Positions 14,090-46,940 of a stretch of 46,940 nucleotides of DNA are shown piece by piece. A program made the position numbers and the translations under genes. This stretch comes from a virus, in IMG/VR virus record IMGVR_UViG_3300025117_001212. One strand, 5' to 3'. The first letter of the stretch is position 1, and each line of letters starts with the position of its first letter. Under the pieces are notes generated by a model. It had not been told where the DNA came from and ran no database searches. It was given only the letters and a program-made list of their open reading frames with translations.

Positions 14090-14959
14090 ATGATAGAATT
14101 TAATAAAATAGTTATTAAAGAATTATTTAGTAATATTTTCGAACATGGGGCATGGACTATTTTTGTTGATGAAAAATATAAAACATGTGACGATGGCGAG
14201 TCCATTCTTGTGAATAATAAAATTTCACTATGTACAACTGTTATGAACCGAAGTGATGATTTAATTAGGTCATTGCCACAAAACATAGAGGATAATAAGG
14301 ATTATCCTAACCTAGAGTTTTTGATATTAGATTATAATAGCTCTAGTAATGAATTAATTAAGCTAATTAATTTTTTATCACAACCATTATATTTAGAATT
14401 AATAAACGAAGGTAGATTAATATTTTATAGGACTGAAGAACCTAGTCATTATAGTATGTCTCATTCGCGGAATATTGCTTTTAAGCAGGCCAAGGGTGAT
14501 ATCGTAGTGAATGTAGATGCTGATAACTTAACTAATAAAGGATTTGCGTCAAAAATAAATCAATTGGCAAATGCTAAACCAGAAATGGCCATTTTTGCAA
14601 AAGGTAAAAGAATGTTAAGAGGCAGACTTGGATTCTATAAAAAAGAATTTATAGAATTACTTGGGGGGTACAACGAAGACTTCATTGGTTATGGTGTAGA
14701 TGATAGAGATATCATGTGCAGAGCTTTTGGGTTAGGATTTACAGCCATGTGTTTTGGAGGTAAATATTTTGGAATAGTAGAGCAAATAATTAAAGAAAAT
14801 AAGACTATAAATATGATTAATCAAAATTGGAAGTATACAGAAAAATTGAACAAAATTATTTCATTTTTTAATTTAGCTTATGGTCTTTATAAAGCTAACA
14901 TAAATAGAAAATGGGGAGTTGTTAATGATCTTAAATCATTTTGGGAATTGGAATTATAA
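14090..14959 (+). CDS. GT2/GT7-like glycosyltransferase whose 3' third is a recoded allele associated with the TnpB cassette
   Basis: ISLCTTVMNR, SRNIAF, VNVDADN, GGYNEDFIGYGVDDRD. Confidence 0.85.
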   Translation: MIEFNKIVIKELFSNIFEHGAWTIFVDEKYKTCDDGESILVNNKISLCTTVMNRSDDLIRSLPQNIEDNKDYPNLEFLILDYNSSSNELIKLINFLSQPLYLELINEGRLIFYRTEEPSHYSMSHSRNIAFKQAKGDIVVNVDADNLTNKGFASKINQLANAKPEMAIFAKGKRMLRGRLGFYKKEFIELLGGYNEDFIGYGVDDRDIMCRAFGLGFTAMCFGGKYFGIVEQIIKENKTINMINQNWKYTEKLNKIISFFNLAYGLYKANINRKWGVVNDLKSFWELEL

Positions 14960-16243
14960 TGTTTTTTAAATCTATAACATATAGAATCTATCCTACTAAA
15001 TCTCAAGAACAGATGTTTAATCAATTCTGTGGTAATAATAGATTTGTTTGGAATCACTTCTTGATGAGAAATATTAAACATCATTTTGTTAGTGGTAAGT
15101 TTATCTTTGGATATGATATGTGTAAGGAGTTAACTAAATTAAAAGAAGAATATGAATGGTTAAAATTATCACCAGCACAATCGCTCCAACAGCAATGTTT
15201 GAATCTTGATAAAGCTATCAAGAATTGTTATAAATCTGAATTTGGATTTCCTAAGTTTAAAAAGAAAGGTAAATCTAAAGAAAGTTTTAAAATAGTTCAA
15301 AGATTTTGGTTTTCTAAATCAAGAAAATCCATAAGAATACCTAAAATTGGATTCATTAGAATTAAGCCTAAAATCAATATTAATTTAAAAGATATCAAGA
15401 ATGTAACCATCAAAAAGATCAATAATCATTGGTATCTTTCTATATGTCATCAATTCAATATCTTTAGAACCCCAATGACTGGGAAAAGAGTTGGATTAGA
15501 TTTAGGAACTGTTAGGTTAGCAACTCTCAGTAATGGTAAAGTGATTGATAAGTTTGAAGACAAAGAATTAGTAAAAAAATTTAAATCAACTCAAAGAAAA
15601 CTAGAAAGGAGAACTAGAAGAAATCGTAAGTATAGAATGAAAAAAATTCAATCTATTAGTCGTGCAAAAACCAAGCAATCACTATCTAGATTGAATAAGA
15701 AACTTAGAGACAAGAGAAAAGATTACTTAGATAAAGTTTCTAAGAAGTTAGTGAAACGATATGACGTGATCTGTATTGAAGACTTGAAAATATCCAATAT
15801 GACTAGACAAGTAAGAGAAAATGAAGATGGATCTCCAAGAAAAAGTGTTAGTGCCAAATCAGGATTGAATAGAGAAATACTCAATCAATCTTGGGGTCAA
15901 CTGATAAACATGTTAGATTATAAATCTAAGTGGTTCAATAAGAGTATGATTAAAGTAGATCCCCATCACACATCACAAAGATGTAGTGAATGTGGATTCA
16001 CTCACAAGAGAAATAGGAGATCACAATCAGAATTTAAGTGCTTAAAGTGTGGTTATGAGCTAAATGCAGATCACAATGCTGCAAAGAATATCAAAAGATT
16101 AGGTATTAGGCAATGGAAAAAAGGCAGCGTAGAATTAAAAAGGTTTGGACGTAACCATGTGGAGGACTCACAGAGTCTAATGAAGCTAGAAAGTTCTATC
16201 TTAGATGGTAGATGCCTTAGAAGTAATTCTAAGGAAACGTCAT
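14693..16243 (+). mobile_element. TnpB cassette 1 (recoded gene end, tnpB, omega-RNA); no tnpA
   Basis: Bounded by a diverged duplication of the glycosyltransferase 3' end starting at 14693 and at 16244. Confidence 0.7.
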
Positions 16244-16251
16244 GGAGCTGA
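14959..16251 (+). CDS. tnpB: TnpB RNA-guided endonuclease (IS200/IS605 family), copy 1
   Basis: YRIYPT N-terminus, GLDLG, IEDL, CSECG..CLKCG zinc finger, NADHNAA; ATG overlaps the upstream TAA; ORF reads through the omega-RNA. Confidence 0.95.
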   Translation: MFFKSITYRIYPTKSQEQMFNQFCGNNRFVWNHFLMRNIKHHFVSGKFIFGYDMCKELTKLKEEYEWLKLSPAQSLQQQCLNLDKAIKNCYKSEFGFPKFKKKGKSKESFKIVQRFWFSKSRKSIRIPKIGFIRIKPKININLKDIKNVTIKKINNHWYLSICHQFNIFRTPMTGKRVGLDLGTVRLATLSNGKVIDKFEDKELVKKFKSTQRKLERRTRRNRKYRMKKIQSISRAKTKQSLSRLNKKLRDKRKDYLDKVSKKLVKRYDVICIEDLKISNMTRQVRENEDGSPRKSVSAKSGLNREILNQSWGQLINMLDYKSKWFNKSMIKVDPHHTSQRCSECGFTHKRNRRSQSEFKCLKCGYELNADHNAAKNIKRLGIRQWKKGSVELKRFGRNHVEDSQSLMKLESSILDGRCLRSNSKETSWS

Positions 16252-16263
16252 TGATAGAGACAT
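16120..16263 (+). ncRNA. TnpB omega-RNA (scaffold to 16243, guide about 16244-16263)
   Basis: ~105 nt block conserved in all three copies, ending GAAACGTCAT, with several hairpins; conservation stops abruptly after it; 5' end approximate. Confidence 0.8.
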
Positions 16264-16501
16264 TCTTAATAGGGCATTTGGACTTGGATTTACGGCTATG
16301 TGTTTTGGTAAGAAATACATAAATGTGGTTACTGAAAAACAAAGTAAAACTATAAATATGATAAACAAGAATTGGCGTTATACTGAAAAATTGAATAAAG
16401 TCATTTCTTTCTTTAATCTTTTGTATGGAATCTATAGAGCTAATGAAAATAGAGAATGGGGAGAGGCACCCCTTATATCATTCAAGGATGTTTCTGTATG
16501 A
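16205..16501 (+). pseudogene. Displaced original 3' end of the glycosyltransferase, still an open frame from an ATG inside the omega-RNA
   Basis: GADDRDILNRAFGLGFTAMCFG... aligns with the last ~88 aa of 14090..14959; its TGA overlaps the next ATG. Confidence 0.8.
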
Positions 16502-17549: not shown

Positions 17550-18659
17550 GTGATGATAAGCACCATAACTTTACTTGAAAATCAAGAGATCTGGTTGAAT
17601 GAATATGCTGAATCAGATCCTGTACAATTGTCATATTTCGCCCCTGGTGGGAATATGGCATTGGATGTAGTTATTACAGGAATTGGTCATATTAAGATTG
17701 ATAGATATATTGCTGATTCTTCTGATGGTACATTTTTCACTGATTCTTCATGGGGAGTAGTTACTGCGTCTCAGTCAGCAGGACATAAAAGGCATACTGT
17801 AGCGATTGATCCTGTTAGTGAATTTATTAAATTCAGATTTACTGAAATAAGTGGGGTTCTTTCTAGTTCTAGTTCGCAATCAAGCAGTTCACAATCAAGC
17901 AGTTCTTCAGCTAGTAGTGAATCTAGTTCTAGTAGTTCTTCACAATCTAGCAGTTCTTCTGTTAGCAGTGGTTCTAGTGCTAGTAGTTCTAGTGAATCTA
18001 GCAGTTCTTCAGCTAGTAGTGGTTCAAGTGCTAGTAGTTCTTCTACTTCTAGCTCTTCTAGTAGTGAATCTAGCTCTAGTTCTCAAGAGAGTTCAAGTTC
18101 TAGCACTTCTAGTTCTTCTAGCAGTGAATCTAGTTCCAGTTCCTCGCAATCTAGTAGTTCTCAAGAATCTAGTAGTTCTAGTGAATCTAGCAGTTCTGAA
18201 GCTTATTTTAAATCTAGTAGTTCTAGTTCTTCAACTTCATCCTTGAGCTCTTCACATTCTAGTGAATCTAGTTCAAGTAGCTCTACATCATCGATATCAA
18301 GTTCTAGTGAATCGTTATCTAGTGAAAGCAGTTCTTCAAGTTCGACGTCAAGCAGCTCTAGCTCTGAAGAATCAAGCTCTAGTTCACAATCGTCTAGTTC
18401 CGAGGAATCAAGCTCTAGTTCCAGTCAATCTAGTTCAAGCAGTTCTGGATCTAGTTGGTCATCTAGTTCTGAATCTTCTAGCTCTAGTGCTTCTAGTGAA
18501 TCTAGTTCAAGCATTTCTAGTTCTAGTACATCTAGTTCTTCGAGTTCCCAGTCGAGTGAGTCTAGTACTTCTTCTAGTTCTCAATCTTCAAGTTCCTCAA
18601 CCAGTAGCGAAGCACCTTCTGCGGTAAGTGTTACTGCGAAGTTGATTATCATGGGGTAG
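17550..18659 (+). CDS. Poly-serine virion-like protein
   Basis: GGAGG RBS; ~250 aa Ser tract inserted before the last beta-strand-like segment (AVSVTAKLIIMG). Confidence 0.7.
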   Translation: MMISTITLLENQEIWLNEYAESDPVQLSYFAPGGNMALDVVITGIGHIKIDRYIADSSDGTFFTDSSWGVVTASQSAGHKRHTVAIDPVSEFIKFRFTEISGVLSSSSSQSSSSQSSSSSASSESSSSSSSQSSSSSVSSGSSASSSSESSSSSASSGSSASSSSTSSSSSSESSSSSQESSSSSTSSSSSSESSSSSSQSSSSQESSSSSESSSSEAYFKSSSSSSSTSSLSSSHSSESSSSSSTSSISSSSESLSSESSSSSSTSSSSSSEESSSSSQSSSSEESSSSSSQSSSSSSGSSWSSSSESSSSSASSESSSSISSSSTSSSSSSQSSESSTSSSSQSSSSSTSSEAPSAVSVTAKLIIMG

Positions 18660-22150: not shown

Positions 22151-24091
22151 TTATCCCTCTAAATGGAATGTACTAATGCCGTCTTTTAGTTTAATCATAG
22201 CTCTGTTTGGAAACAGATCTTTGATGTGTTCAGAATGTGAGATTACTATGAATCTTTTATTGTTGTTTGATTCTTCATCAAGCAAATCTCGTATTTTAAT
22301 GATTCCGACTTTATCAATGCCATCAAATAATTCATCTAAGAATATTTCACTTATTAAGTTTGATTCTAAATTCATTAGCGCAAATGATGATATTATTTCA
22401 ATTCTTTTCTTTTGGCCCTTTGACCATTCTTTAAATGGCAGATTTTCTTTGTGAGCATCAGATATGTCAAGTTCAAATATATTTCTTATCTTCTGATTGC
22501 CTTGGGTTTTTTCAGTTAGTAATTTAACATCAATGATTCCATCAGTTAGAACATTAGAAACATCTCTCATATGCTTATTGAGTTCAGCAACAGTCGATTT
22601 TAAAGCGAATGCTTGGATTGCTTCTTTGCCATATCCTTCATGCCATGCTAAATTGTATCTGAGTTTCTTTTGTAACGATTTAACTTCTTCTTTTAGTTCA
22701 TCAATAGTTTTTTCAATTTCTTTTTTTTCTTTTCTAACTGTGTTACTTCTTTCTATATGAACATTTTTTGCATTTTTTATTTCATCAATCCTTTTTTGAA
22801 GTTTACTAAAATCTTGTTTATACATGAGTGCTTTAGTATCCGCTAACGATTTTAGTTTTTCAATACCGTACTCTATGGATGATATTTGATTTTCTATTCT
22901 TTTATTTTCGGCAACAATTACCTCTATATCTTTTAATTTTTGAATTATTATGTTTTTATCATCACAAAGTTGTCTATAATCTTCATTTCTTTTCTTTAAA
23001 TCATTTGTTAATGATATTGTTTCAGTTTTAAGTTTAGAAATTAGTTTATTTATGTTATCATTAGATATTAACGATCCACACTCATCGCATGTTTCTCCAG
23101 TATTTTTTCTATTTCTTTGTAGGTTATTAATTCTGTCTTGTAATGAATTTATATTATTTTGTAGATGAATTGTATTTGCTTTACATATCATTAATTGACT
23201 GTTTATTTTATCACATTCATCTTTTAATTTGTTCAATTTCTTAACAGGTTTAATTTTAGATCTTAGATTTTTAATTAAATTCTTCTGGGATTTTATTGAT
23301 TCTTTTCTATCAGATTCTAGTGATTTTATTTTCTCCTTTATTTCTTTTAATTCTTTGATAAGTTTGGCAATTGTTTCTAATTTATCTTTTGCAAATATTT
23401 TACTTTGCCTTTTTTGTTCTTTAATCTCAGATTTCATCCTAGAAGTTAGAATTAAATGCTTTTCTAATTCATGATTAAGTTCATTAATGCCTTGCTTTCC
23501 TTCTTCTACTTTTGATTTTGCAATATCAACACATTTTGAAAATATATCTAATCCTTTAAGTTGTGATAATAGTTCTTTTCTATCTTTATCACCTAAGTAA
23601 ATAAATTTGCTTCTGACGTCATTACTCTCAAAAATAGATGTATTCAAAACTCTTTTATATGATAATCCTAACTTTGATAATATCCAAGTTGTCATATCAG
23701 TTTGTGTTGATTTTATGTTCTTAAGTTTGCCATTCTTTGCAAAGAGAACCGCATTTCCGTGCTCAGGATGTTTTCTATGTCTAGTAATTGTGTAATCATG
23801 AACCCCGTTAGTGAGTTCAATTTCCGTCATCATTGATTCGCCAAACTTACCAATTAGTTGATCTTTATTAGAATTCTTAGTGGTCTTATCAAATAGTGTG
23901 TAAACTACTGCGTCATAAATAATACTCTTACCAGCTCCGTTGTCAGATGCAAATGCTTGATCATCGTAGTTCTTTCCATACATCAATAATATGTTAGATT
24001 TTGAAAATGCCTTGTCAAAATCTATTGTGGTATCTTTGTAAGATATATAATTAACCATTCTCAACTTTTTGAGAGTCAACATGACAAACAC
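22151..24091 (-). CDS. sbcC: SbcC/Rad50/gp46-like recombination ATPase
   Basis: NGAGKS Walker A, coiled coil with CDECG zinc hook, WSKGQKKR signature, FLDELFDGID, ISH. Confidence 0.9.
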   Translation of the reverse strand: MFVMLTLKKLRMVNYISYKDTTIDFDKAFSKSNILLMYGKNYDDQAFASDNGAGKSIIYDAVVYTLFDKTTKNSNKDQLIGKFGESMMTEIELTNGVHDYTITRHRKHPEHGNAVLFAKNGKLKNIKSTQTDMTTWILSKLGLSYKRVLNTSIFESNDVRSKFIYLGDKDRKELLSQLKGLDIFSKCVDIAKSKVEEGKQGINELNHELEKHLILTSRMKSEIKEQKRQSKIFAKDKLETIAKLIKELKEIKEKIKSLESDRKESIKSQKNLIKNLRSKIKPVKKLNKLKDECDKINSQLMICKANTIHLQNNINSLQDRINNLQRNRKNTGETCDECGSLISNDNINKLISKLKTETISLTNDLKKRNEDYRQLCDDKNIIIQKLKDIEVIVAENKRIENQISSIEYGIEKLKSLADTKALMYKQDFSKLQKRIDEIKNAKNVHIERSNTVRKEKKEIEKTIDELKEEVKSLQKKLRYNLAWHEGYGKEAIQAFALKSTVAELNKHMRDVSNVLTDGIIDVKLLTEKTQGNQKIRNIFELDISDAHKENLPFKEWSKGQKKRIEIISSFALMNLESNLISEIFLDELFDGIDKVGIIKIRDLLDEESNNNKRFIVISHSEHIKDLFPNRAMIKLKDGISTFHLEG

Positions 24092-24450
24092 CTAGCTTTT
24101 TCTTTAGGAAACATTCTACAATATGATGGTCTTATTCTAAGAGAAACACCCACTCTTCCAAATTTTTCAAAGTATTTTTCTATTAACCTCCATATTAGTT
24201 TGGTTATCTGTTTTCTATTTTCAAATACAAGTGAAATAGATCCTTCGCTATCGTAACAAATAGTTGTTTTACAGTCAAAGTCCATTGTCCCTCCCTCATG
24301 CGATTGTGCCAGCTATAAATATCATTATCAACAATAGAAAAATGCATTTAATTAGTTGAGTCGGAGTCGTGTTATGAGTAAAAGATAAAATTGACATTAA
24401 TAGTGTGTTTATAGACATGAATAGAATCATATCTGAAATTAATTTTATGT

Positions 24451-24654
24451 TCATTTTATTATTTTAACTTCAAATCGTAACCAAAATCGCGATTGATATT
24501 CTTGAGTAATTATTTTAGGCCCAAAGGCTTCTCCTATAACAATTTCTTTAATGGTTAATATATGTCCAAGATGTACATTGCCATACATGCCATCTTCAAT
24601 TATCTTGATTTTAGTTCCAGGTTTATATAATTTATTGAATGTATACTTATTCAT
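24451..24654 (-). CDS. Small protein of the MNxYT..K.Y..G family
   Basis: N-terminus shared with three ORFs at 31363-32023; ATGA overlap with the upstream gene. Confidence 0.6.
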   Translation of the reverse strand: MNKYTFNKLYKPGTKIKIIEDGMYGNVHLGHILTIKEIVIGEAFGPKIITQEYQSRFWLRFEVKIIK

Positions 24655-25808
24655 TTCATACTCTTAGCATCAGTTAAAATTTTCATGCCTACTCTTTCAA
24701 CCTTTTTCCTTTTAAGTTCTTTTTCCCTTGCCAAGATTCTACTAAAGTTTGATACTATGGCTTCTGTTGTAACATCTTCTTCATTAATAATCATATCTTC
24801 TTCATCATCTGTGATCGTATTAAATGTTTCATTTTTAAAAGATACATGCCTTGCCCCTAGTTCCATTAATTTTTTATGTGTTTCCCGTTCATTTGTTTTT
24901 TGGCTTTTATCTGTGAATGTGATTTTAACAATATTTCCAGGAACCTTATCTTCATTTATATTATCAAAATCCATGTAGATGAACTTAGGTGCCTTAGGAA
25001 TTACAAAGTATCTTTTATCTTTATTCAAATCTATTATGTGAAATCCATGATCTATACTCCTTTCCCCAAAATTAAGTGGTATTGGTGATGAGGTATAAAA
25101 TCCTAGACCATTACAGATTTCTTGGTATTTATGGATATCGCTTGCCACAATCAAACTAAATATATCTTTCATTTTACCTTTGGTAAATAATTTTTGACTT
25201 AATCCAGATTTAGCTTTTCTTTTTCCAAATTTAGAATTTCTAAAGATATTGTGAACAAATAAGATATTCTTTTTGTTCTGATTTTTTAGATCTTTTTTGA
25301 GATTAAGTATTTGAATTCTATTTTGGGTTTCATTGTCATAAGGAATAACAACTGCATTGAAATCATTCATGTCAATTATACTTGGGGCTGATATAATCTT
25401 ATGGTTTTCGTTGCCAGCAAATCTAAAAAGAGGTGATAACACTGAAGATTTGCCTTCGAGATCGTGGTTTCCTAAATTTATTACTACACGTACATCTTTA
25501 TATAATTCAAAAGTAATAGCCAATGTTGATAGCACTGCATAATCAAGAGTCTTCTGTAGTAATAAATCTCCATTAATAAATACTGGTAATTTGAATTCAG
25601 CACCAGCTCCTAATGCAAGATCTAAAACTGTTGCGATATCTATTAGTCTATCTGAAATTATACTTGCTGATGAATTGTATGGATAATCGTTGAAGAGATG
25701 AACATCACCAATAGCTATGAAACCTGATTTAACTTTCAGATTTCCTAGCTTTTTTTCTCTTATCCTTATCACTTCCATCTTCTTCCTCCCTAGCCATCCT
25801 TCTTTCAA
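24651..25808 (-). CDS. sbcD: SbcD/Mre11/gp47-like metallophosphoesterase nuclease
   Basis: GDVH, NGDL, GNHD, FVH, SDIH motifs; near the SbcC-like gene; start probably the second Met. Confidence 0.85.
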   Translation of the reverse strand: MKEGWLGRKKMEVIRIREKKLGNLKVKSGFIAIGDVHLFNDYPYNSSASIISDRLIDIATVLDLALGAGAEFKLPVFINGDLLLQKTLDYAVLSTLAITFELYKDVRVVINLGNHDLEGKSSVLSPLFRFAGNENHKIISAPSIIDMNDFNAVVIPYDNETQNRIQILNLKKDLKNQNKKNILFVHNIFRNSKFGKRKAKSGLSQKLFTKGKMKDIFSLIVASDIHKYQEICNGLGFYTSSPIPLNFGERSIDHGFHIIDLNKDKRYFVIPKAPKFIYMDFDNINEDKVPGNIVKITFTDKSQKTNERETHKKLMELGARHVSFKNETFNTITDDEEDMIINEEDVTTEAIVSNFSRILAREKELKRKKVERVGMKILTDAKSMK

Positions 25809-26877
25809 TATATCTATCTAATCGTTTATTGAATTTTTCACTTTTGAGATGTTCATCAAGCTTCTTAATAAAGTTGGTTTCGCCCACTCCTGTTACTTGA
25901 TATTTTTTAAAAGACAAAGAATATGTGTTGCCTTGATGCTTGACTAGTTTATGATTCTTTAGGAAGTTAAAAATTGATCTTGCAGGGTCTATCCCTATTC
26001 CGAATATAATTGGCACCTTAACTGTTTTATAAGGCACCATGACTTTATTTTTGATAGTCTTTACATTTGTTTCGATCCCTATAGGATCACCATCTTTAGT
26101 TGGCTTAATAAAACTATCACGCCAAATATCAAGCCTTAGAGATGCATGAAACTTTAATGCAGCTCCACCTATTTCGGTATTTGCATTACCATATCTTACT
26201 CTTGTATCAGTCTTAGTTTGATTAGTACAAACTAGAATAACTTGTTCTCTAGCTATACGTTTACTTATTCCCCTGAAGAATCTAGATAGTCTTCTGGCAT
26301 GTAATCCTTGTGCTTGCTCATCCTCGTTACTGGATGCTTCCCATTCTACTTTAGGAGGGACACCGGCTATTGAATCAAGTACTTGAATCATTGGAACATC
26401 AAATTCTTTGCCTGTTTCTGCTTTATATTCTTCTTTTACAAGTTTAAACATCTCAATATTATTTGATATGATGTCAAGTGCCTGTTCAAGATAATCTGGC
26501 TGCGATATAATAAGTTCATCTAAATTGAGGCCAAGTTGCTCAGCATATACAGGATCAAAAGCATTTTCGGTTTCAATGATGGTTGCCATTCCTCCCATTT
26601 CTTGTACACTTTTCATGAATGAGATAGCGAGAGTTGTTTTCCCAGAAGCTTCTTTACCAGAGATACCTATTATTCTACCAACCGGAAGACCAAATTTGCC
26701 ATTAATATCTTTTGCAAGTATTCTATCTAAATCTAATGATCCAGTAGGAATGGTTTTCCTAACAGTTGACGTAACATTAGAAGATGATAGCAATACTGCA
26801 GAATCAGCACCAAATTTCTTGGTACTGCTCTTCATAATACTATCAATTAGTTTTTCCCTAACTAGCGATTTTTTCAT
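25729..26877 (-). CDS. recA: RecA/UvsX recombinase
   Basis: IPTGSLDLD, GLPVGRII, GKEASGKTT, ISQPD, DSIA, GGAALKFHASLRLD, KNKV. Confidence 0.95.
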   Translation of the reverse strand: MKKSLVREKLIDSIMKSSTKKFGADSAVLLSSSNVTSTVRKTIPTGSLDLDRILAKDINGKFGLPVGRIIGISGKEASGKTTLAISFMKSVQEMGGMATIIETENAFDPVYAEQLGLNLDELIISQPDYLEQALDIISNNIEMFKLVKEEYKAETGKEFDVPMIQVLDSIAGVPPKVEWEASSNEDEQAQGLHARRLSRFFRGISKRIAREQVILVCTNQTKTDTRVRYGNANTEIGGAALKFHASLRLDIWRDSFIKPTKDGDPIGIETNVKTIKNKVMVPYKTVKVPIIFGIGIDPARSIFNFLKNHKLVKHQGNTYSLSFKKYQVTGVGETNFIKKLDEHLKSEKFNKRLDRYIERRMAREEEDGSDKDKRKKARKSES

Positions 26878-29308: not shown

Positions 29309-30112
29309 TTAAATGTTAATGGATTTTCTAAATGGATTATCTGTAGCCCAATCTTTATTCAATCTTTCAACAAACATCTTATATAGAACTTCAAAATTTA
29401 TGTCAAGGTTCGCCTCCTTTCTATAGTCATTCACTAGCTGATTTGTAACTTCAACTAGAGATTCTATATTAGAAAATTGAGTCACAATAATATTGTAGGC
29501 AGTGTCTATTATCTGACCAAACTGTGTGTTTCCAAGTTTTACTTCTGTTAATGCGTAAATCAATATTTCAAACTTGTCAACACCAGAAACAAGTAATCCT
29601 TCTTCACTGCCATCTTTTGAAGACTTCCATAGATTTATATAGTATTGCTTGATATTCTCTGGAAGCCCTTCAAACACTTCTTGCTCTACGCATTTAATAG
29701 CAATTGTTTTGAATAATGCTGATACCTGATCAGATCCATGTTTAACTGGAAACAAAATGTCGCCAGTTACACTTTCTTCTATATCATGGATAAGGGCTCT
29801 TTTAATAACTTCTGATGTATCATATCTTTTTAATTTACTATTTTCAAGATCAGCAAACAACATTGCATAGAGGGCAGTATAGAATGAATGTTCAGAAACT
29901 GGATATTTTCCAATATGCGGAGTATTTGAACATCTGTCTATGCTGCATAATCTGCGTGCCCTGAACACAAAATCTGATATATGACGTTTCTCTAATTCTT
30001 TGGAGTTAGAGCATCTACCATTTAAGGTAGAACTTTCTAGTTTCAACGGACTCAATGAGTCCTCCACATGGTTGCGCCCCAACCTTTTTTCACCTAAGCT
30101 GCTTTTTTCCAT
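29309..30112 (-). CDS. HD-domain 5'-deoxynucleotidase (YfbR-like) with a 44-aa N-terminal extension encoded by TnpB omega-RNA
   Basis: VSEHSF, ALIHDIEESVTGDI, DKFE; the first 44 codons are the omega-RNA scaffold. Confidence 0.85.
   Translation of the reverse strand: MEKSSLGEKRLGRNHVEDSLSPLKLESSTLNGRCSNSKELEKRHISDFVFRARRLCSIDRCSNTPHIGKYPVSEHSFYTALYAMLFADLENSKLKRYDTSEVIKRALIHDIEESVTGDILFPVKHGSDQVSALFKTIAIKCVEQEVFEGLPENIKQYYINLWKSSKDGSEEGLLVSGVDKFEILIYALTEVKLGNTQFGQIIDTAYNIIVTQFSNIESLVEVTNQLVNDYRKEANLDINFEVLYKMFVERLNKDWATDNPFRKSINI
29961..30110 (-). ncRNA. TnpB omega-RNA copy 2 (scaffold ends 29981; guide about 29980-29961)
   Basis: Same conserved block ending GAAACGTCAT. Confidence 0.8.
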
Positions 30113-31269
30113 TATCTGATTCCCTTCTTTTTGATATTTATAGCAGCATTATGATCTGCATTTAATTCATATCCACACTTCAAACATCTGAACTCACTTT
30201 GAGATCTCCTATTTCTCTTATGAATGAAACCGCATTTACTACATTTCCTAGAAGTATTCTCAGGATTTACCCTAATCACCTTTTTGTTAAACCAAGAACT
30301 CTTATACTCTAATATTGAAATCAGTTGTCCCCAAGACTGATTCAGTATTTCCCTATTGAGCCCTGATTTAGCACTGACACCACTTCTATGAGATCCATCA
30401 TCAGTTTTATTTACTTGTCTAGTCATATTCTTGATCTTTAAGTCTTCAATGTAGATCATATCATACTTCTTTACTAACTTCTTAGAAACTTTATCTAAGT
30501 AATCTTTTCTCTTGTCTCTAAGTTTCTTATTCAATCTAGATAGTGATTGCTTGGTTTTTGCACGACTAATAGATTGAATCTTTTTCATTTTATGTTTTTT
30601 ATTTTTTCTAGTCCTCCTTTCTAGTTTTCTCTGTGTTGATTTAATCTTTTTCAGTAACTCTTCATCTTCAAATTTATCAATCACTTTTCCATTAGAAAGA
30701 GTTGCTAATCTTACTGTTCCTAAATCTAACCCGACTTTTCTACCTGACATTGGAGTTCTAAATATACTGAATTGATGACAGATATAAAGACACCAATTGT
30801 TCCCTTGCTTTTTAATGGTTACATTTTTAATATCTTTAAGATTAATATTAATTCTAGGTTTGATTCTAATAAATCCAATTTTAGGAATCTTAATTGATTT
30901 TTTAGATTTAGATATTTTAATGTTTTGATTAACCCTAAAACTTTCTTTAGATTTTCTTTTCTTTTTAAACTTAGGAAATCCAAATTCTGATTTGAAGCAA
31001 TTTTTTAGTGCTTTATCTAGATCTAAGCATTGTTGTTGAAGTGGTTGGCTAGGAGATAGTTTTAGCCATTCATATCCTTTATACTGTTTTAATCTAGTTA
31101 ACTCTTTACACATATCATACCCAAACAGGAACTTACCACTAACAAAATGATGTTTAATGTTTCTCATTAAGAAGTGATTCCATGTAAATCTATTATTACC
31201 ACAAAACTGATTAAACATCTGTTCTTGCGATTTAGTAGGATAGATTTTATATGTAAAAGATTTTATCAT
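30112..31269 (-). CDS. tnpB: TnpB RNA-guided endonuclease, copy 2
   Basis: GLDLG, IEDL, zinc finger, NADHNAA; close paralogue of copy 1. Confidence 0.95.
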   Translation of the reverse strand: MIKSFTYKIYPTKSQEQMFNQFCGNNRFTWNHFLMRNIKHHFVSGKFLFGYDMCKELTRLKQYKGYEWLKLSPSQPLQQQCLDLDKALKNCFKSEFGFPKFKKKRKSKESFRVNQNIKISKSKKSIKIPKIGFIRIKPRININLKDIKNVTIKKQGNNWCLYICHQFSIFRTPMSGRKVGLDLGTVRLATLSNGKVIDKFEDEELLKKIKSTQRKLERRTRKNKKHKMKKIQSISRAKTKQSLSRLNKKLRDKRKDYLDKVSKKLVKKYDMIYIEDLKIKNMTRQVNKTDDGSHRSGVSAKSGLNREILNQSWGQLISILEYKSSWFNKKVIRVNPENTSRKCSKCGFIHKRNRRSQSEFRCLKCGYELNADHNAAINIKKKGIR

Positions 31270-31307: not shown

Positions 31308-31336
31308 ATTATACAACAGTTATGCCACAATTGCAA
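31308..31336 (-). promoter_or_regulatory. Sigma70-type promoter for tnpB copy 2
   Basis: TTGCAA-17 nt-TATAAT. Confidence 0.7.
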
Positions 31337-33863: not shown

Positions 33864-33873
33864 GATTCTCCTT

Positions 33874-34360: not shown

Positions 34361-34362
34361 GA

Positions 34363-34958: not shown

Positions 34959-37669
34959 TTTTTTACAAACCCTTCTATAAATTTTTCTTTGAATTTTCCG
35001 AACTCTTCTGGATTTTTAGACTTAACAATCTTTCTGAGTTTCTCTGAATCAATTGGTGACATTCCTGCAGCTTCAAGTCCCGCCAACATTAAATGTTCAC
35101 TATAGACTAGTACACCCATTGAATCTTTGGTTATTTCGGTGATTGATGGATGAAGTTCTTCTATTTCTTCTCTTCCATTTTTGCGATCAGCATATTTTTC
35201 AAATGCTCCAGCCGCAATTGGCCCAGGTCTATCAGCAGCTATTAGAAATATCAAATCTTCAATGTTATCTGGCTTAGTATTTCTTAAGGTTCCTTTTATT
35301 TTAGAACTACCTAACTGGAAAAACCCGATGTTTTCTCCTTTTGATAGAGTTTTGTAAACTTTCTTATTGCTTAATGGTATGTCTTCCAAATTTAGTTTAA
35401 TTCCATATCTTTTTTTAATTAAGCCAAAAGTATCTTTTATTACAGATAAGGTTTTAACTCCTAAAATATCCATAACCATGACACCGGCTTCATTAAGATG
35501 TTCTACTGAAGTATGTGAATTTTCCCATTGTGTTGTAAATACTCTTTCATCATTTTTACCCTTGCTGACTTTATTTGTTCTTACTGGAAGCCATTCATAG
35601 TATGGGATGGGAGATACTACAATTCCTGCAGGATGTAAGGAAGGGGCATATCTGTTATTTAGAATTGGGTGAACATATTTGAAATACCAATCTTTATTCT
35701 TAGCAAACCATCTTGATACTTCACCAATTTTTGTTATGTCATTTTCATCCCCAATGAGTTTTGTTATTTTGTTTATTTCCATAAAACTAAATGATTCTAA
35801 TCTAGCTTTATACTCAGCAGCTTCTTCAGCAGTTTTAGAATCATTAATTTTTTTATTTAGTTCTTCTGCTTCAACTCTAGCCATGTTCTTAATGGCTGAT
35901 CGTAATTGTGTCCTTCCAAAACTCCCAACAGGACATACCCTGTCTTCACCATACCTTTTCTTTAAATAATCTATTGCCATATCTCTGTAGGTATGGCATA
36001 TGTCTAAGTCAATATCGATATCAGCCATTCTAGCCTCTATACGAGCAGGTGAAATAAATCGTTCAAATAGAATTTTAAATTTGATAGGGTCAACAATTGA
36101 CAAACCAATGAGCCAAAGCACAACACTTCCATTAGCTGATCCTCTTAAAGAACATAGACATCCTTGCTTTTTAAGAAATCTTACTAGATCATCATAAATA
36201 AATATGTACGATATAACACCCATCTTTGTGAAAGCATCTATTTCATAATCTATACGTTTTTTGTATTCCTTTAATGGTGCCGATAATTGATCCTTTCTTT
36301 TCTTTAGGCCCTTCTTTATTCTCCATTTGAGATATTCTAATTCATCTAGTCGTTTTTTCTTATTGCCTGGAAATTTAGCCACACTTATTTTTGGGATTTT
36401 TAATCCACCAGTTTCTAATTCATGATTACATTTGTAAGCAACTTCTAAAGTATTAAGAACAGAAGACTTAAAAACATCGTCCGAGAAATGTTTCTTTTCT
36501 TTATGCGTTTCGTATATATCTTTGAAAGATTTAAACCAAATAGAATCACAATATGTTTCTGATAATTCAGAATCTTTTTCCCTCATCCTCATTACTTTAC
36601 TCTGTATTTCATGTCCACCTTCTTTTAAATAATGAACATCATTTGTAATAACTGTTTTGATATTCATTTCATCAGCAAGTTCTATAAGTCTTCTATTATA
36701 TCTTTTTTGAATGTTTATATCATCTACATAAATATCATGCAATTGCAATTCGAAATATAGATCATCCTTGAACATGTCTTTTAGATCTTGCGCAATTGCC
36801 CTTGCCTTCCTAATTTTGCCGTTAATAAGTTTACTGGCAAGCACACCTTTGAGGCAAGCTGTGAGGACAATGAGACCATCTTTATATTGCTCTAACATTT
36901 GGTAGTCAATACGAGGCCTGTAATAATAATTTTCAGTGCTCCATGCTAATTTTTGGAGAATAAGCATGTTACGATAGCCTATGCTATTCTTAGCTAATAG
37001 AACGATATGGTTACTTGATCTATGATCGCCATCATGAATTGTTGCATCATCAGTTATATATGCTTCAATTCCCATTATTGGTTTTATTCCAGCTTTCTTA
37101 CAAGCTAGATGTAGAGACATATGTGAAGCCATATTACCGTGGTCAGTGACAGCTAGGGCATCCATTCCAAATTCTTTAGCTTGTGCTACATATTTTTCGC
37201 AACTAGTAACTCCGTCCAAAATTGAACTATCGGTATGAACATGTAGGTGGACAAAGTCTGATTTTGAATTAGTAATTTTAGTTTTTTCAATCAACCTCAT
37301 AAGAGAGAATGGAATTGAATAAACGGCTAATCCTATCTTTTTAATGATCCTTATCTTTTTAGATATCATATATTTTGAAACTAAATATGGATCACCTCTA
37401 AAATCTATAATAATATCATCTATTCGTTCTGGAATAGAACGAAATATGCTTAGAGGAATATTTGTTTCTTTAATTTCTCTGAATCCATAGTTAGCTGAAT
37501 AAAAGAAAAATTCTTCACCTAAATCAGATAAGATAATAGCCGTATCATTAGATAATTGTTTTACTTCAGCAGGAACAATATATGTTCCACTCAAAAGAAG
37601 ATCTATTCCTGTCATGGTGATCCTAATTTTAAACATTAGAGGTCTTTGGAGTTCCTCGCCAAAATACAA
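34937..37669 (-). CDS. dnaE: DNA polymerase III alpha, N-terminal part (PHP and catalytic domains)
   Basis: FVHLHVHT, TDHG, TNDVHY, RGSANGS, LFERFISPAR, DIDIDLD, HPAGIVV, MDILG, GFFQL, RPGP. Confidence 0.95.
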   Translation of the reverse strand: MYFGEELQRPLMFKIRITMTGIDLLLSGTYIVPAEVKQLSNDTAIILSDLGEEFFFYSANYGFREIKETNIPLSIFRSIPERIDDIIIDFRGDPYLVSKYMISKKIRIIKKIGLAVYSIPFSLMRLIEKTKITNSKSDFVHLHVHTDSSILDGVTSCEKYVAQAKEFGMDALAVTDHGNMASHMSLHLACKKAGIKPIMGIEAYITDDATIHDGDHRSSNHIVLLAKNSIGYRNMLILQKLAWSTENYYYRPRIDYQMLEQYKDGLIVLTACLKGVLASKLINGKIRKARAIAQDLKDMFKDDLYFELQLHDIYVDDINIQKRYNRRLIELADEMNIKTVITNDVHYLKEGGHEIQSKVMRMREKDSELSETYCDSIWFKSFKDIYETHKEKKHFSDDVFKSSVLNTLEVAYKCNHELETGGLKIPKISVAKFPGNKKKRLDELEYLKWRIKKGLKKRKDQLSAPLKEYKKRIDYEIDAFTKMGVISYIFIYDDLVRFLKKQGCLCSLRGSANGSVVLWLIGLSIVDPIKFKILFERFISPARIEARMADIDIDLDICHTYRDMAIDYLKKRYGEDRVCPVGSFGRTQLRSAIKNMARVEAEELNKKINDSKTAEEAAEYKARLESFSFMEINKITKLIGDENDITKIGEVSRWFAKNKDWYFKYVHPILNNRYAPSLHPAGIVVSPIPYYEWLPVRTNKVSKGKNDERVFTTQWENSHTSVEHLNEAGVMVMDILGVKTLSVIKDTFGLIKKRYGIKLNLEDIPLSNKKVYKTLSKGENIGFFQLGSSKIKGTLRNTKPDNIEDLIFLIAADRPGPIAAGAFEKYADRKNGREEIEELHPSITEITKDSMGVLVYSEHLMLAGLEAAGMSPIDSEKLRKIVKSKNPEEFGKFKEKFIEGFVKKWTKKVK

Positions 37670-40013: not shown

Positions 40014-40628
40014 TCACATTAAAATTGCTGTTATTGTAGTTAATTCATTGATTACAGGATACTCATATTCAATTCCTAATTTTTCCATAGTTGCATACAC
40101 ATCAATCCCAATAGCTTCTAATGATGGAAGGCCATTTCTGCGGCATGGTGGATGATCGCGATTAGGGCATCTTATTCCGCATTTATCACAATGACCCTGA
40201 AGCAAAGCAAACACATTCTTATTAAGCTGTTTTAGTTCACGTTTATATCTTACCATTAATTGACATGTTTCTCTTGATTGACCCATTTCACATCCTTTGA
40301 GCTGCCTACCTTTCCTTACTTTAAAGTCTATATGTGATAGATCTTTTTTGTTAATTTTCCAACTTTTAGTTCCATCATTTTTCCATATGAATAATATGCA
40401 GTGATCAAAGCTATTTACGAAATTCATTGATAATTCAAGAGTTTCAAATTGAGGATAAGTAAGTTTAAGATATGATGGACATAAGATAAATCTTCCCACT
40501 CCGCCGCATGTGTAACATTTCAACCTAGCGATTAAATCAAAAATTAATTCATCAGGTTTGATAATTTTATATTCAGAAAAGATTTCTGGTTTAGGCAATT
40601 TGTTTAATATCTTTATTAATTTTTTCAT
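40014..40628 (-). CDS. DUF2284-like metal-binding protein
   Basis: RLKC..C....CP, GHCDKC..C....C, PSLEAIGIDVYAT. Confidence 0.75.
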   Translation of the reverse strand: MKKLIKILNKLPKPEIFSEYKIIKPDELIFDLIARLKCYTCGGVGRFILCPSYLKLTYPQFETLELSMNFVNSFDHCILFIWKNDGTKSWKINKKDLSHIDFKVRKGRQLKGCEMGQSRETCQLMVRYKRELKQLNKNVFALLQGHCDKCGIRCPNRDHPPCRRNGLPSLEAIGIDVYATMEKLGIEYEYPVINELTTITAILM

Positions 40629-41497
40629 TTTAATCCTACGATATGTTTATATCTAAACCATGAACCAAAATTTTTATAAACAACCTTAAATGATACTCCT
40701 GTTAATTTGGTAAATTCTATTTGGGTCATAAGTTCGTTATGTGTTTCGGCTAATTCTCTACCTACTTTAACTAAACTTTTCTTAGTATGTTTCTTTGGTT
40801 TTTTTATTATTTGTGTTTTCCATTTTAATTTTTCAGCTTCAGATTTTTCTCTATGCAGATTCATTCTTTTCATAAGTCTCGTAACAACTACCTTAGTTAG
40901 ATTAAGATTTTTAGCAATTTGCCTTGATGATAGTCCTTGGTGATGCATATTGTAAATTTTTTTGTAATATAAGTCATATTTAATTTTATTATTTTTTGTC
41001 CAACGCACTGGATCTTTAGTTTTTTGCCCATTTGATTTTTTATTCGAACATAATCCCATTCGCCCTGCGTGTTCCATATTTTCTTTATGAGTCACATATT
41101 CCAAATTTTTAATATTATTGTTTGTTTTAATCCCATCAATATGATTTACTTCTTTATTGTTCGGGCATGGACCTAAAAAAGCATGGGCTACTAATCTGGC
41201 AGTACGTATCCATATTTTATTTTTACATAAACTTAGTTTAGTGTTTAAATATCCAGAGGTAGATATCCTTTGATTAGCTAATTTACCAGGCCAATTATCT
41301 GTTTTATCATCATATATTAGCCCTCTAATTCTAGCTAGATTTGATACTTCATAATCAGGAAATTCTATTAGTTTATTCTTAACCATTACAGCACATGGTT
41401 TCCAAATTTCGCCAGGCAGGGTTCCACAATGTGGTTGCCTTTTTAATTGATATTTTCTAGACATTATCTCAAAATTTACCTTCTGGATAATAGTCAC
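40625..41497 (-). CDS. Free-standing NUMOD4/HNH homing endonuclease
   Basis: EIWKP..YEVSNLARIR, RLVAHAFL, VNHIDGIKTNN..NLEYVT..EN..H, C-terminal HTH and FGSW repeat. Confidence 0.9.
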   Translation of the reverse strand: MTIIQKVNFEIMSRKYQLKRQPHCGTLPGEIWKPCAVMVKNKLIEFPDYEVSNLARIRGLIYDDKTDNWPGKLANQRISTSGYLNTKLSLCKNKIWIRTARLVAHAFLGPCPNNKEVNHIDGIKTNNNIKNLEYVTHKENMEHAGRMGLCSNKKSNGQKTKDPVRWTKNNKIKYDLYYKKIYNMHHQGLSSRQIAKNLNLTKVVVTRLMKRMNLHREKSEAEKLKWKTQIIKKPKKHTKKSLVKVGRELAETHNELMTQIEFTKLTGVSFKVVYKNFGSWFRYKHIVGLK

Positions 41498-44076: not shown

Positions 44077-45249
44077 TTAAATAAAAATTAATCTTCTTGG
44101 CCTCCAAATTAATTTAGATTTAGAATATGATATCGGGAAATTGCTATCAATGTTTGTACGTATAGTAATTCCTAATACTTTTAAGCTCCTAATAGATCCT
44201 ACTATATTCCCTAGTTTATAATGTTTTGCTTTTATAATATCCCAATGTCTAAATCCATTTCTTTCAATACAAGTTTTAGTTGGATTATTTTCCCATACCT
44301 TGGTTCTTTTGGGAATTATCAAATATTCCTTACATTTAAACTTAAAAGACTTAATCATAGCTGAGGCATCATTTGCATGAGATTTTTTTAATCCAAGTTC
44401 TATTCTTTTATTTTTAGTCATCCAACCAAAACAAATTCTCACTTTTTTAAATCTTTCTTTCAATGCATTAAATAAAAACCATTTTCCTTGTTGAACATGT
44501 GCTGGATATCTGAATTGTTTAACACTTTTATTAAATAGCCATTTACCATTATGTAATGAATTATGACAATTCTTGCACAAAGTCAATCCGTTCTTAACTA
44601 TGTTAGTTCCACCATTTGATCTAGGAATTATATGATGGGCATTTAAATTTTCTTTACTTTTACAATGTTGACAAATATATTTATCTCTCCATAGAACCTT
44701 TTGTCTCCAATTTTCACCTTCATATCTAGATTGTTGATATTCTTTCCCAACCAATTTATATCCAGCACTCATTGATGAAATATCAAATTGTCCTTGTTCG
44801 ACAACACATTTAGTGATATTTAATCTTTTCATCATAAAATCAATCACTCTAAGAATTGATTCTTTCTTTTGTCTTATAGAAGGAGGAATCCAACCTTTTT
44901 CTCTTTTTCTATTCAAAAACCTACATTGTCTATATCTTAAATTACGATTTCTTCTATTTCTACGATACATCATTCTTTGCAACATTTTTCTATGTACATC
45001 TTGCCTTAATTTAATAGTTCCACAAAATACAACATTTTTCTTGTGACCTATTGATATCCCTACTTCTTTAGCTCCATCATCAATTCCGATTTTAAATTTG
45101 CCTACAGGATTATTAATCACTTTCTTCAATTGAATCGTAAACGGAATCACTGAATATACAAATGCTTTCTTTTTCTTCAAAAGAAGTCTTGCCCTTGCTT
45201 CAGTGGTAGGAAGCAATGGCTTAAATTCTCTATCTATGACAAAGACCAT
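44077..45249 (-). CDS. iscB: IscB RNA-guided endonuclease
   Basis: PLLP (PLMP) N-terminus, GIDDG RuvC-I, RRNRR bridge helix, VEQG, HNH (HHIIPRSNGG..N..CKNCH), KSHANDA. Confidence 0.95.
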   Translation of the reverse strand: MVFVIDREFKPLLPTTEARARLLLKKKKAFVYSVIPFTIQLKKVINNPVGKFKIGIDDGAKEVGISIGHKKNVVFCGTIKLRQDVHRKMLQRMMYRRNRRNRNLRYRQCRFLNRKREKGWIPPSIRQKKESILRVIDFMMKRLNITKCVVEQGQFDISSMSAGYKLVGKEYQQSRYEGENWRQKVLWRDKYICQHCKSKENLNAHHIIPRSNGGTNIVKNGLTLCKNCHNSLHNGKWLFNKSVKQFRYPAHVQQGKWFLFNALKERFKKVRICFGWMTKNKRIELGLKKSHANDASAMIKSFKFKCKEYLIIPKRTKVWENNPTKTCIERNGFRHWDIIKAKHYKLGNIVGSIRSLKVLGITIRTNIDSNFPISYSKSKLIWRPRRLIFI

Positions 45250-45505
45250 TTAAGGTATCTCCTCTCGGGTTACGGTATCCTCGACAAACTGCGTCTCACG
45301 TCTTAACGATAAGAACCCATGATTCCTATCCCACAGAGCTCCAAACTGGATAAATTCGGAGGTGTTTAGTGAGAACAGGTAGCTGGACAAACTCACCTGC
45401 ATACTCGGCTTAACAACCAGCTTAGTCTCGAAGTCAATCATTGTATGCTACGACTCCTTGAATGAATCTAAAAACGAATGTTGACTTGCTACTTCTAAAA
45501 ATGTG
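45250..45505 (-). ncRNA. IscB omega-RNA (guide about 45505-45486; scaffold from GTCAAC at 45485)
   Basis: GC-richer block upstream of iscB; AAGTCAACATT pairs with AATGATTGACTT, followed by AGACTAAG, as in IscB omega-RNA 5' stems. Confidence 0.7.
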
Positions 45506-45870
45506 GCCGTGGCGGTAACTGATCTAAAGCGATGCCTAGTATAAGGTTGAATTCTAAATGTTTCATTTCTTGATAATTCAATGCATCTAGGTTTGCCTAC
45601 AAAATTATCAGCAGTTCCATGCAACCATTCTAACATTATTATTCCATCTAGAACATAAAAGGTTTCATCTTTATGTTTATGATAATGAAATGCACCATTT
45701 GATGAAATGACTTGATTAGCGCAATATAGAAGTTTTAGGCTATATATTTCAGTGCTTACAATAAGTTTCTCATATCCCCAAGGTTTAACTACTACATTGT
45801 CTTCATCATTTATGTCTATAGGTTCATAAAATCTTAGTGCAATTCCTTTTGGATAAAGTAAATCATTCAT
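45448..45870 (-). CDS. Cupin (sugar isomerase-like) protein
   Basis: VVKPWGYE, FHYHKHKDETFYVL.G, HRF, FLEVA. Confidence 0.8.
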   Translation of the reverse strand: MNDLLYPKGIALRFYEPIDINDEDNVVVKPWGYEKLIVSTEIYSLKLLYCANQVISSNGAFHYHKHKDETFYVLDGIIMLEWLHGTADNFVGKPRCIELSRNETFRIQPYTRHRFRSVTATATFLEVASQHSFLDSFKES

Positions 45871-45879: not shown

Positions 45880-46293
45880 CTATTTAACCGGAGTTCTTTT
45901 AATCTTCCCTTTTTGAATTTGTAATCTTAAACTAGTGTCACACCTAAGATATGCCTTATTTCTTTGGTATTTTGGATCTAATCTAATAGATCCTCCTAAC
46001 CCAAATAACTTTCCTGTTATTTCACATCTCGAGCATTTATAAAGGTCACAATATGCGCCATTTCTTTTTACTGTTACTAAATTTATCTTTTGCCATTCAT
46101 GATCTTTTATTGAAAATTTGTTTAATATTCTCACGCCAAGTAAAACTCTTTCTTTATCCCCCTCGTAAAGTGTTTCATTATATCTTTTGATTATTTCTTT
46201 AGCCCATTCTTCAGGATTATCTATATTTTGATCATACTCCTCTTCATGAATGTTACTTAAATCTTTATTGGCTACCTTAATTACAAACTTCAT
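45880..46293 (-). CDS. Hypothetical protein
   Basis: HEW.K.NLVT..YKCSRC.ITGK motif; ATGA overlap. Confidence 0.6.
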   Translation of the reverse strand: MKFVIKVANKDLSNIHEEEYDQNIDNPEEWAKEIIKRYNETLYEGDKERVLLGVRILNKFSIKDHEWQKINLVTVKRNGAYCDLYKCSRCEITGKLFGLGGSIRLDPKYQRNKAYLRCDTSLRLQIQKGKIKRTPVK

Positions 46294-46493
46294 GGTATCT
46301 CCATACCAGACCTAATATACAATTGATCTGCAAGAAATTCATCTTCTTCATTAGACACACCCATTGATAATAGTCTTCCCAATGCAAGCATTATAATTCT
46401 ATCATTACTCATATCGCATATTTTGCTTTCAAAAATTTTTTGTTGGTTTTTTTCTTCAAGTTTTTCGTTCTCTGATTTTCTAAACAATCCCAT
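46290..46493 (-). CDS. Hypothetical protein
   Basis: GAGGTG RBS. Confidence 0.55.
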   Translation of the reverse strand: MGLFRKSENEKLEEKNQQKIFESKICDMSNDRIIMLALGRLLSMGVSNEEDEFLADQLYIRSGMEIP

Positions 46494-46503
46494 TTTTTAC
46501 CAC

Positions 46504-46625
46504 CTCTTCTTTTTACTAATTTCATGACGTTTCCTCTAAGAGGCATCTACCATCTAAGGTAGAACTTTCTAGCTTCAACGGACTCTGTGAGTCCTCCACA
46601 TGGTTGCGTCCCAACCTTTTTGATT
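46504..46625 (-). ncRNA. TnpB omega-RNA copy 3 (scaffold ends 46524; guide about 46523-46504)
   Basis: Same conserved block ending GAAACGTCAT. Confidence 0.8.
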
Positions 46626-46940
46626 TCAAGCTGCTAACCTCAATCCTAATCTCTTAATATTTATAGCAGCATTGTGATCTGCATTCATTGTGAATCCACA
46701 CTTCAAACATCTAAAGTCAGATTGTGATCTCCTATTTCTCTTGTGAGTGAATCCACATTCGCTACATTCTCTTGAAGTGTTCTTAGGATTAACTTTTATC
46801 ACTTTTTTATTATACCAAAGACTCTTATATTCTAACATATTAATCAGTTGTCCCCAAGACTGATTCAGTATTTCCCTATTGAGCCCTGATTTAGCACTGA
46901 CACCACTTCTATGAGATCCATCATCAGTTTTATTTACTTG
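46626..46940 (-). CDS. tnpB: TnpB copy 3 (3' part only; truncated by the window edge)
   Basis: SGLNREILNQSWGQL, zinc finger, NADHNAA. Confidence 0.9.
   Translation of the reverse strand, partial: QVNKTDDGSHRSGVSAKSGLNREILNQSWGQLINMLEYKSLWYNKKVIKVNPKNTSRECSECGFTHKRNRRSQSDFRCLKCGFTMNADHNAAINIKRLGLRLAA

Follow-up and report, generated by a model that had tools for sequence, protein, structure and literature searches.

The closest described relatives of the elements considered here are the TnpB and IscB nucleases of the IS200/IS605 group, represented by ISDra2 TnpB (PDB 8bf8) and HfmIscB (PDB 9k2z), whose omega-RNAs carry a guide derived from the DNA flanking the element (10.1101/2023.03.14.532601). 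Three tnpB genes and one iscB gene are present in the viral record IMGVR_UViG_3300025117_001212, a stretch of 46,940 nt (47 kb; the window) belonging to a contig of about 140 kb. Their products are of the same families as the described nucleases and share with them the catalytic residues, the RNA position and the flank-derived guide, but no tnpA lies nearby, the left or distal end hairpin is missing, the invaded genes are whole and the RNA scaffold doubles as coding sequence. On balance, these IS200/IS605-derived cassettes are best regarded as likely RNA-guided homing elements with gene rescue, each located inside a gene that is kept whole.

Several other systems resemble these cassettes in part. 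TnpB drives insertion sequences (IS) through plasmid populations, even with a dead TnpA (PMC11870625), and this spread, termed 'non-restorative homing' (PMC13565253), likewise proceeds by cutting the empty allele on a co-resident replicon and does not need TnpA catalysis; as far as the available text of these sources goes, it concerns a complete IS in an engineered test, without rescue of an interrupted gene and not in phages. Homing into co-infecting phages is treated as theoretical in the accessible part of a 2026 review (PMC13565253). The free-standing phage homing endonucleases, such as SegF and SegB of T4 (PMC13565253), are also intronless, cut the rival allele of a neighbouring gene and leave their own allele resistant by sequence change; they are described as intergenic and of protein-coded specificity, whereas here the specificity resides in RNA templated by a displaced gene piece. 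Foreign C-termini brought by protein-guided endonucleases are known from fungal mitochondria, where in the mobile-ORF (open reading frame) hybrids of Allomyces atp6 and Glomus atp6, atp9, cox2 and nad3 a cassette with a foreign C-terminus displaces the native one (PMC3630166), as at locus 1 below; the hybrids presented there encode LAGLIDADG or GIY-YIG proteins, with no guide RNA and no dual-coding RNA. IStrons (PMC10690162), TnpB elements that also sit in a gene without destroying it, are reported to splice out as group I introns. In the window no group I or other intron family was matched at gathering score, so splicing of the IStron type was rejected, in accord with the original prediction. 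Finally, a home-and-rescue drive has been engineered (PMC7968924). Full-text searches, outside which most subscription papers and preprint supplements lie, retrieved no paper describing gene patches in RNA-guided cassettes of phages or phage omega-RNAs that are dual-coding, and the accessible portions of an Arc preprint and a cyanophage preprint contain nothing on rescue.

The nucleases appear intact wherever they can be read. TnpB1 (430 aa; 14959..16251, plus strand) has the RuvC residues D181/E274/D371 and a C-terminal tail read through its own omega-RNA, and TnpB2 (385 aa; 30112..31269, minus strand) has D182/E275/D372; both triads align with that of ISDra2 TnpB (E 2e-44). Only the 3' part of tnpB3 (46626..46940, minus strand), with the third Asp, lies inside the window, its 5' part being beyond it; the full protein is likely P0001, of 387 aa. 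The helix-turn-helix, OrfB and zinc-finger Pfam domains are matched by all three TnpBs where present. TnpB1 and TnpB2 are 82% identical and P0001 is 93% identical to TnpB2, with an identical run of 249 residues and divergent ends (window 30320-31060 and 46840-46940); chimeric proteins occur in other assemblies. This pattern suggests gene conversion between the copies. IscB (390 aa; 44077..45249, minus strand) is separated by 15 nt with a ribosome-binding motif from an amidase gene and retains intact RuvC and HNH parts, with the PLLP motif, D57, E151, H206, H291 and D294 all present. Its PLMP-type motif, split RuvC and HNH are those of the IscB/HEARO family, and its closest solved structure is HfmIscB (E 9e-49).

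Downstream (3') of each tnpB there is a conserved structured block of about 125 nt, consisting in all three copies of a hairpin followed by AAACGTCAT, with which omega-RNA 1 (16119..16243, plus strand, 5' limit approximate), omega-RNA 2 (29981..30108, minus strand, dual-coding) and omega-RNA 3 (46524..46634, minus strand) all end. The right-end hairpin and fixed terminal motif of mobile IS200/IS605 elements are thus found in 3/3 copies; the hairpin itself is not conserved, varying by copy in sequence and length (20, 22 and 11 nt). A model built from the three omega-RNAs finds only those three in the window, with no guide arrays or detached guides, and two more in the related locus L114, among 20 sources scanned. 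Both sides change in 12 of 33 base pairs, a count resting on five sequences and an alignment fitted to the structure. An extra AAACGTCA at 21292 is not an omega-RNA. The alignments and RNA models thus bear out the earlier description of three tnpB genes and one iscB, with visible catalytic residues intact and an omega-RNA for each.

Locus 1 is the most informative. A GT2/GT7C glycosyltransferase identified by Pfam (full length 289 aa; 14090..14959, plus strand), whose model (predicted template modelling score, pTM, 0.84) is grouped with viral glycosyltransferase clusters in a structure atlas, has a replacement 3' end (14693..14959, plus strand; here the patch), the stop of which overlaps the tnpB1 start codon in TAATG. 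On the other side of the nuclease the predicted guide 1 (16244..16263, plus strand) coincides with the first codons of the displaced glycosyltransferase end (16244-16501), contained in an open ORF of 98 aa (16205..16501, plus strand) whose ATG lies inside omega-RNA 1 and whose stop overlaps the ATG of the next gene (16498). The left edge of the duplication falls exactly after TTAT (14689..14692, plus strand), the predicted target-adjacent motif (TAM) directly 5' of the recoded target, which also precedes the intact left end of the related element L114b; the right edge falls directly after the omega-RNA end. The downstream copy is taken to be the native end by position, because it has no stop or frameshift, is in frame with the omega-RNA ATG and keeps the ATGA overlap with the next gene. 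A putatively foreign C-terminus in frame, with the native end displaced 3' of the nuclease, is the arrangement of the mobile-ORF hybrids, the foreign origin being assigned by position and not from a tree. The 98-aa ORF had no usable match in the structure atlas. An alignment of 76 codons between patch and displaced end gives 71% amino-acid identity, with synonymous differences at saturation (pS 0.76) and few nonsynonymous ones (pN 0.19; Fisher p 5e-12). Saturated synonymous and constrained protein divergence therefore point to two long-diverged working alleles joined around the nuclease, not to a decaying tandem duplicate. Such an allele pair is what repeated homing predicts; a single recent import of a foreign end may give the same. 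Guide 1 mismatches the resident patch at positions 3, 5, 6 and 18, three of them within the first six, and none of the four guides has a TAM-adjacent exact match in the window, the resident alleles differing at the target.

A comparable layout was sought among 132 tnpB loci with sufficient flank (74 from IMG/VR, 53 from metagenomes, of which 19 of 64 parts were scanned for tnpB relatives, 3 from cultured phages and 2 window controls). The source contig itself was not met in the scanned metagenome parts. A same-strand repeat across tnpB is present in 10 of the 132, and in four of them, locus 1, L081, L114 and L159, it begins at the RNA end. Among the matches listed, the two full-length relatives nearest to the window copies and flanked on both sides are L081 (47%) and L114 (43%), which share the omega-RNA core; the contig of L114 begins at the repeat, so the gene upstream lies outside it. 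At all three loci the differences between the patch and the guide-bearing copy concentrate in the protospacer: 5/20 in the first 20 nt versus 3/114 elsewhere in L114 (hypergeometric p 0.002), 6/20 versus 2/48 in L081 (p 0.006), and 4/20, all synonymous, versus 0/40 in L159 (p 0.01), values to be read with the reservation that neighbouring changes may stem from one event. The second set, of 91 loci (65 from GTDB and 26 viral), yielded six repeats and no clear patch case, L251, L257 and L268 resembling paralogue arrays. Judged by these sequences, the patch layout is real, uncommon and absent from the cellular genomes examined. Repeats discarded by eye were extra omega-RNA copies (L043, L047, L051, L158), repetitive genes (L126, L145, L201) and end hairpins (L194, L234); L162 and L164 were chance matches of a relaxed RNA pattern.

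Other features of these relatives are also worth recording. The extra omega-RNA-like copies of L043, L047, L051 and L158 lie upstream of tnpB, two of them in L051, and are possibly small guide arrays. An orphan omega-RNA of the window family (L161:4940-5036, minus strand) sits between two genes with no tnpB beside it, and contains an internal GTG in frame with a downstream glycosyltransferase; no tnpB match was found in the 15-kb fragment with L161, which is uninformative. In L081 (5755-5987), L082 and L084 a small ORF resembling Arc/RHH proteins is located directly upstream of tnpB and is absent from the window copies; that of L081 has no Pfam match, and three 17-nt repeats are present in L081.

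At locus 2 the invaded gene appears to begin inside the RNA. The ORF for a YfbR-like HD nucleotidase (29309..30112, minus strand) has omega-RNA 2 as its first 44 codons, and its ATG overlaps the tnpB2 stop, again in TAATG; the predicted guide 2 (29961..29980, minus strand) corresponds to the first native codons (ISDFVFR). The extension is found in none of 62 other homologues, many of which begin at ISDF, where the guide starts, and in a modelled YfbR-like fold the first helix comes directly after the junction (pLDDT, the per-residue model confidence, 84.6); a single-sequence fold of the fusion was uninformative (pLDDT 39). The frame read through omega-RNA 2 is considered ancestral because it is open in all three omega-RNAs. 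Compared with copy 1, omega-RNA 2 differs in a stop, a 1-nt loss and a hairpin longer by 2 nt, which together link the ATG to the YfbR-like gene, and these changes suggest selection.

The IscB locus shows the third arrangement, in which a gene ends inside the RNA. A HEARO-like omega-RNA (45269..45485, minus strand) lies upstream of iscB, as in the IscB/HEARO family, and the Rfam HEARO model aligns with it over the full length (45485-45269; E 1.6e-7), at 42.5 bits, under the gathering score of 83 bits. A cupin gene (45448..45870, minus strand), whose coding sequence also provides the predicted guide (45486..45505, minus strand), ends within this RNA: its last 12 codons with the stop make up the first 38 nt. 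The scaffold begins at GTCAAC in cupin codon 129, and the 12 codons with the stop, including the conserved H-x3-D-S-F-K end, are placed within the first helix, where pairing with the canonical TTGAC strand is preserved (z -2.3); the complete RNA folds no better than shuffled sequences (z -1.0 and -1.4). Among 151 cupin homologues the residues inside the scaffold are conserved to different degrees, D135 in 148, H131 in 98 and S136 as Ser in 83, and right at the junction a near-invariant Thr (138/151) is replaced by Ser. The scaffold may have received a copy of the native tail, or the tail may have mutated in place. For copy 3 the predicted guide (46504..46523, minus strand) may be a nine-codon gene remnant, with EISKKKRW as its end, or else open a 38-codon ORF, the ATG of which arises from the omega-RNA end. 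The claim that every guide is coding sequence of a phage gene accordingly holds for guides 1, 2 and that of IscB and stays unproven for copy 3, while the three proposed ways of keeping the frame, a foreign 3' end, a start codon inside the omega-RNA and a C-terminus inside the omega-RNA, are all legible as layouts in the sequence. Assembly artefacts around the repeated tnpB copies, an explanation to which the identity of TnpB2 and TnpB3 over 249 residues and the chimeric proteins of other assemblies lend some colour, are extremely improbable: the glycosyltransferase, the remnant ORF, the YfbR fusion, the cupin and IscB each recur letter for letter on 7-11 contigs, and single contigs cross the omega-RNA 2/YfbR junction (X1, X6) and the cupin/IscB RNA junction (X1, X6, X10) with no differences.

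In the three complete cassettes the guide-distal side shows no transposon end. A conserved left-end hairpin is absent at tnpB1 and tnpB2, and there is no space for one after iscB; the left side of tnpB3 lies beyond the window. The 5' flanks of tnpB1 and tnpB2 have nothing in common outside the start codon region, which confirms the lack of a shared left end: tnpB1 is preceded by no more than the TAATG shared with the glycosyltransferase stop, and tnpB2 by 93 AT-rich bases with no stable or GC-rich hairpin and with a sigma70-type promoter match, TTGCAA-17-TATAAT (31308..31336, minus strand), the best of nine where 9.3 are expected by chance and so weak alone. Neither a Y1 nor a serine transposase was found by Pfam in 108 of the 128 window ORFs of at least 60 aa (the 20 omitted ORFs being of at most 71 aa); within the window the tnpA in cis of mobile IS200/IS605 elements is thus missing, as had been claimed.

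How the elements reached their sites is a separate question. The original prediction went beyond homing and proposed retargetable drives without TnpA; in full this would be a transposase-independent lineage gaining guides by recombination at the omega-RNA end. It is true that in a quick tree built from 64 sequences picked from search matches, with 15 GTDB-genome rows in a separate group, all three window TnpBs fall into a single clade (support 100) yet occupy three sites with no common left end, that their right-end hairpins differ in length and sequence, and that GTDB genomes gave 0 matches to the omega-RNA core pattern. This model is nevertheless quite improbable, since the precise identical right junctions and the TTAT at the sole readable left junction fit TnpA chemistry, the sister loci L114b (after TTAT) and L082 (after TTAC) retain left-end hairpins, and L159 is an intermediate with both IS ends and a patch. 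Nearly 50 tnpA-less elements are predicted to move in trans in the preprint of Meers et al. (10.1101/2023.03.14.532601), and mobile solo TnpBs are reported by Altae-Tran et al. (PMC10691335). Because relatives keep their left ends and such solo elements have been described, TnpA acting in trans, followed by loss of the ends, is the likelier source of new sites than transposase-free retargeting. With no GTDB match to the omega-RNA core and a best full-length GTDB protein only 45% identical to a sister-clade query, the donor element was not identified. Of the earlier gene-drive proposal, homing with rescue is the best reading, and retargeting without TnpA is not supported.

An analogue with its empty allele exists in cultured phages. 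In Staphylococcus phage VL10 (OP940114; L165:2190-3790) and six CIFT phages, all of Silviavirus, an IscB gene with a HEARO-like RNA lies in the first codons of a RusA-like resolvase gene, and in VL10 the right end of the cassette supplies a new resolvase start, with two synonymous changes in the target. The empty alleles of Remus and LSA2308 (L279, L280) match the VL10 IscB guide exactly. The 71-nt empty site was matched in 51 records, duplicate phage records included, 44 of them unbroken (30 identical to Remus) and seven split. No Y1 TnpA was found in VL10 by a search whose control was positive in 6 of 14 genomes and which did not extend to serine transposases; in the available part of the CIFT phage paper the HEARO is only listed (PMC13346280). 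A different arrangement is seen in the Harbinvirus pair Iacchus and Bromius, from a comparison of Lactobacillus phage Iacchus (L166:2430-3780) with L281 and L282. In Iacchus a TnpB separates the -35 box of a promoter from its -10 box; on the left of the TnpB, a spacer and -10 box of similar but changed sequence make up a promoter version of the patch, and the guide matches the empty Bromius allele over the first 19 nt.

Homing with rescue is supported by the codon pattern of locus 1, the protospacer recoding at the three other tnpB loci and the Silviavirus analogue. Several observations weigh against it. No empty allele of this phage was found in IMG/VR, where scans with an omega-RNA 18-mer, TnpB2, the glycosyltransferase and IscB returned no relative, and no joint skipping tnpB2 or iscB occurs among the joints listed for four runs (locus 1 excluded), contigs being apt to drop rare variants. 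Patches are rare overall (3 cases among the 130 non-window loci of the first set, 0 clear ones among the 91 of the second), and the mismatches at locus 1 itself are not enriched in the protospacer (4/20 versus 17/52). The tnpA search covers only about a third of the source contig. Immunity from three seed mismatches is not certain, because TnpB and IscB bind with weak seed dependence in the consulted portion of Meers et al. (10.1101/2023.03.14.532601).

Some of these points would suit another account, in which tnpB-only or iscB-only insertions of the ordinary kind owe a single mobilisation to a host TnpA, were later mended by compensatory mutation and recombination, and are now passengers that homing does not help to maintain. 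The right-end motif common to all three copies, the IS ends kept in relatives and the descriptions of solo TnpBs mobilised in trans (PMC10691335, 10.1101/2023.03.14.532601) agree with it, no empty allele was seen locally, and protospacer recoding proves past nuclease activity only. It is rather unlikely all the same: no visible catalytic residue and no structured RNA is missing from the four nucleases, although they have lost their left or distal ends, and the locus 1 remnant is intact, with constraint at the protein level despite saturated synonymous divergence. That the nucleases are chiefly weapons, cutting genes of nucleotide and sugar metabolism in competing phages, with copying of the cassette secondary, has a precedent in an intron endonuclease taking part in phage competition, so far as that paper's accessible text describes it (PMC11620839); the apparently self-immune layout and the position of tnpB2 behind a strong promoter match would also suit such a use. 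This is improbable, as the guides are no more than sequence flanking each insertion, the window contains neither guide arrays nor detached guides, and the targets are accessory-looking genes.

If homing with rescue is accepted, the cassettes would have arisen in four steps. A transposase in trans would have brought each element to a TAM (for the TnpBs probably TTAT), thereby fixing its guide. The nuclease would then cut the uninterrupted allele in a co-infecting relative, and recombination would copy the cassette in; the SbcC-, SbcD- and RecA-like genes found by Pfam outside the cassettes (22151..26877, minus strand) could mend such a cut. Selection would have restored the interrupted gene, and where the spare copy remade the TAM and target, the protospacer would have been recoded against self-cleavage. 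Finally, the transposase-binding end would have decayed, leaving the cassette fixed. Repeated homing would renew the downstream remnant from working alleles, the patch travelling with the cassette.

The remainder of the window is AT-rich and phage-like, with dnaE, RecA, SbcC/SbcD, RuvC, thymidylate synthase, amidase and a sugar-modification cluster, and its proteins are present on contigs of up to 139,835 bp. At least 11 sequencing runs, among those listed, contain this phage; they are groundwater or soil metagenomes, none recorded as RNA. A free-standing NUMOD4-HNH endonuclease gene (40625-41497, minus strand) is a conventional homing endonuclease candidate in the same genome. The dnaE gene (32020-37669, minus strand) is broken in two, a 910-aa part being followed, about 2 kb further downstream and beyond intervening small genes, by a C-terminal part; the latter contains a stop and a change of frame immediately ahead of the conserved KAH motif (about 32880), probably no one-off error because the X6 contig has identical letters, and this break may be a programmed frameshift or decay. 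A virion-like region encodes three proteins with very long serine-rich tracts of up to about 390 residues (2550-3200, 5850-7050 and 17850-18620). A tRNA-like Rfam match (42 bits; 26920-26989, minus strand), not called as a tRNA by ARAGORN, lies between the RecA gene and its upstream gene. Four small minus-strand ORFs (24603-24654, 31542-31593, 31772-31823 and 31972-32023) share the N-terminal motif MNxYTxRKKY and form a small paralogue family.

More broadly, and tentatively, large phages may host natural RNA-guided home-and-rescue drives, built on TnpB as well as IscB, with guide RNAs that also serve as coding sequence of the invaded gene. Such drives would increase in copy number inside a genome, recode the protospacers they carry, transfer foreign gene ends from one phage lineage to another and perhaps gain targets without a transposase. 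The Silviavirus pair VL10 and Remus makes the mechanism directly testable in cultured phages. Omega-RNAs that supply a start codon or a conserved C-terminus mark the scaffold parts that tolerate change. If the reading as homing elements with rescue is true, transposon RNA-guided nucleases would have become intronless, retargetable homing endonucleases, a step between an insertion sequence and a domesticated guide system, with a natural recoded rescue resembling that of the engineered home-and-rescue drives; the patches would also spread pieces of genes from one phage lineage to another and would distort the gene trees of phages.

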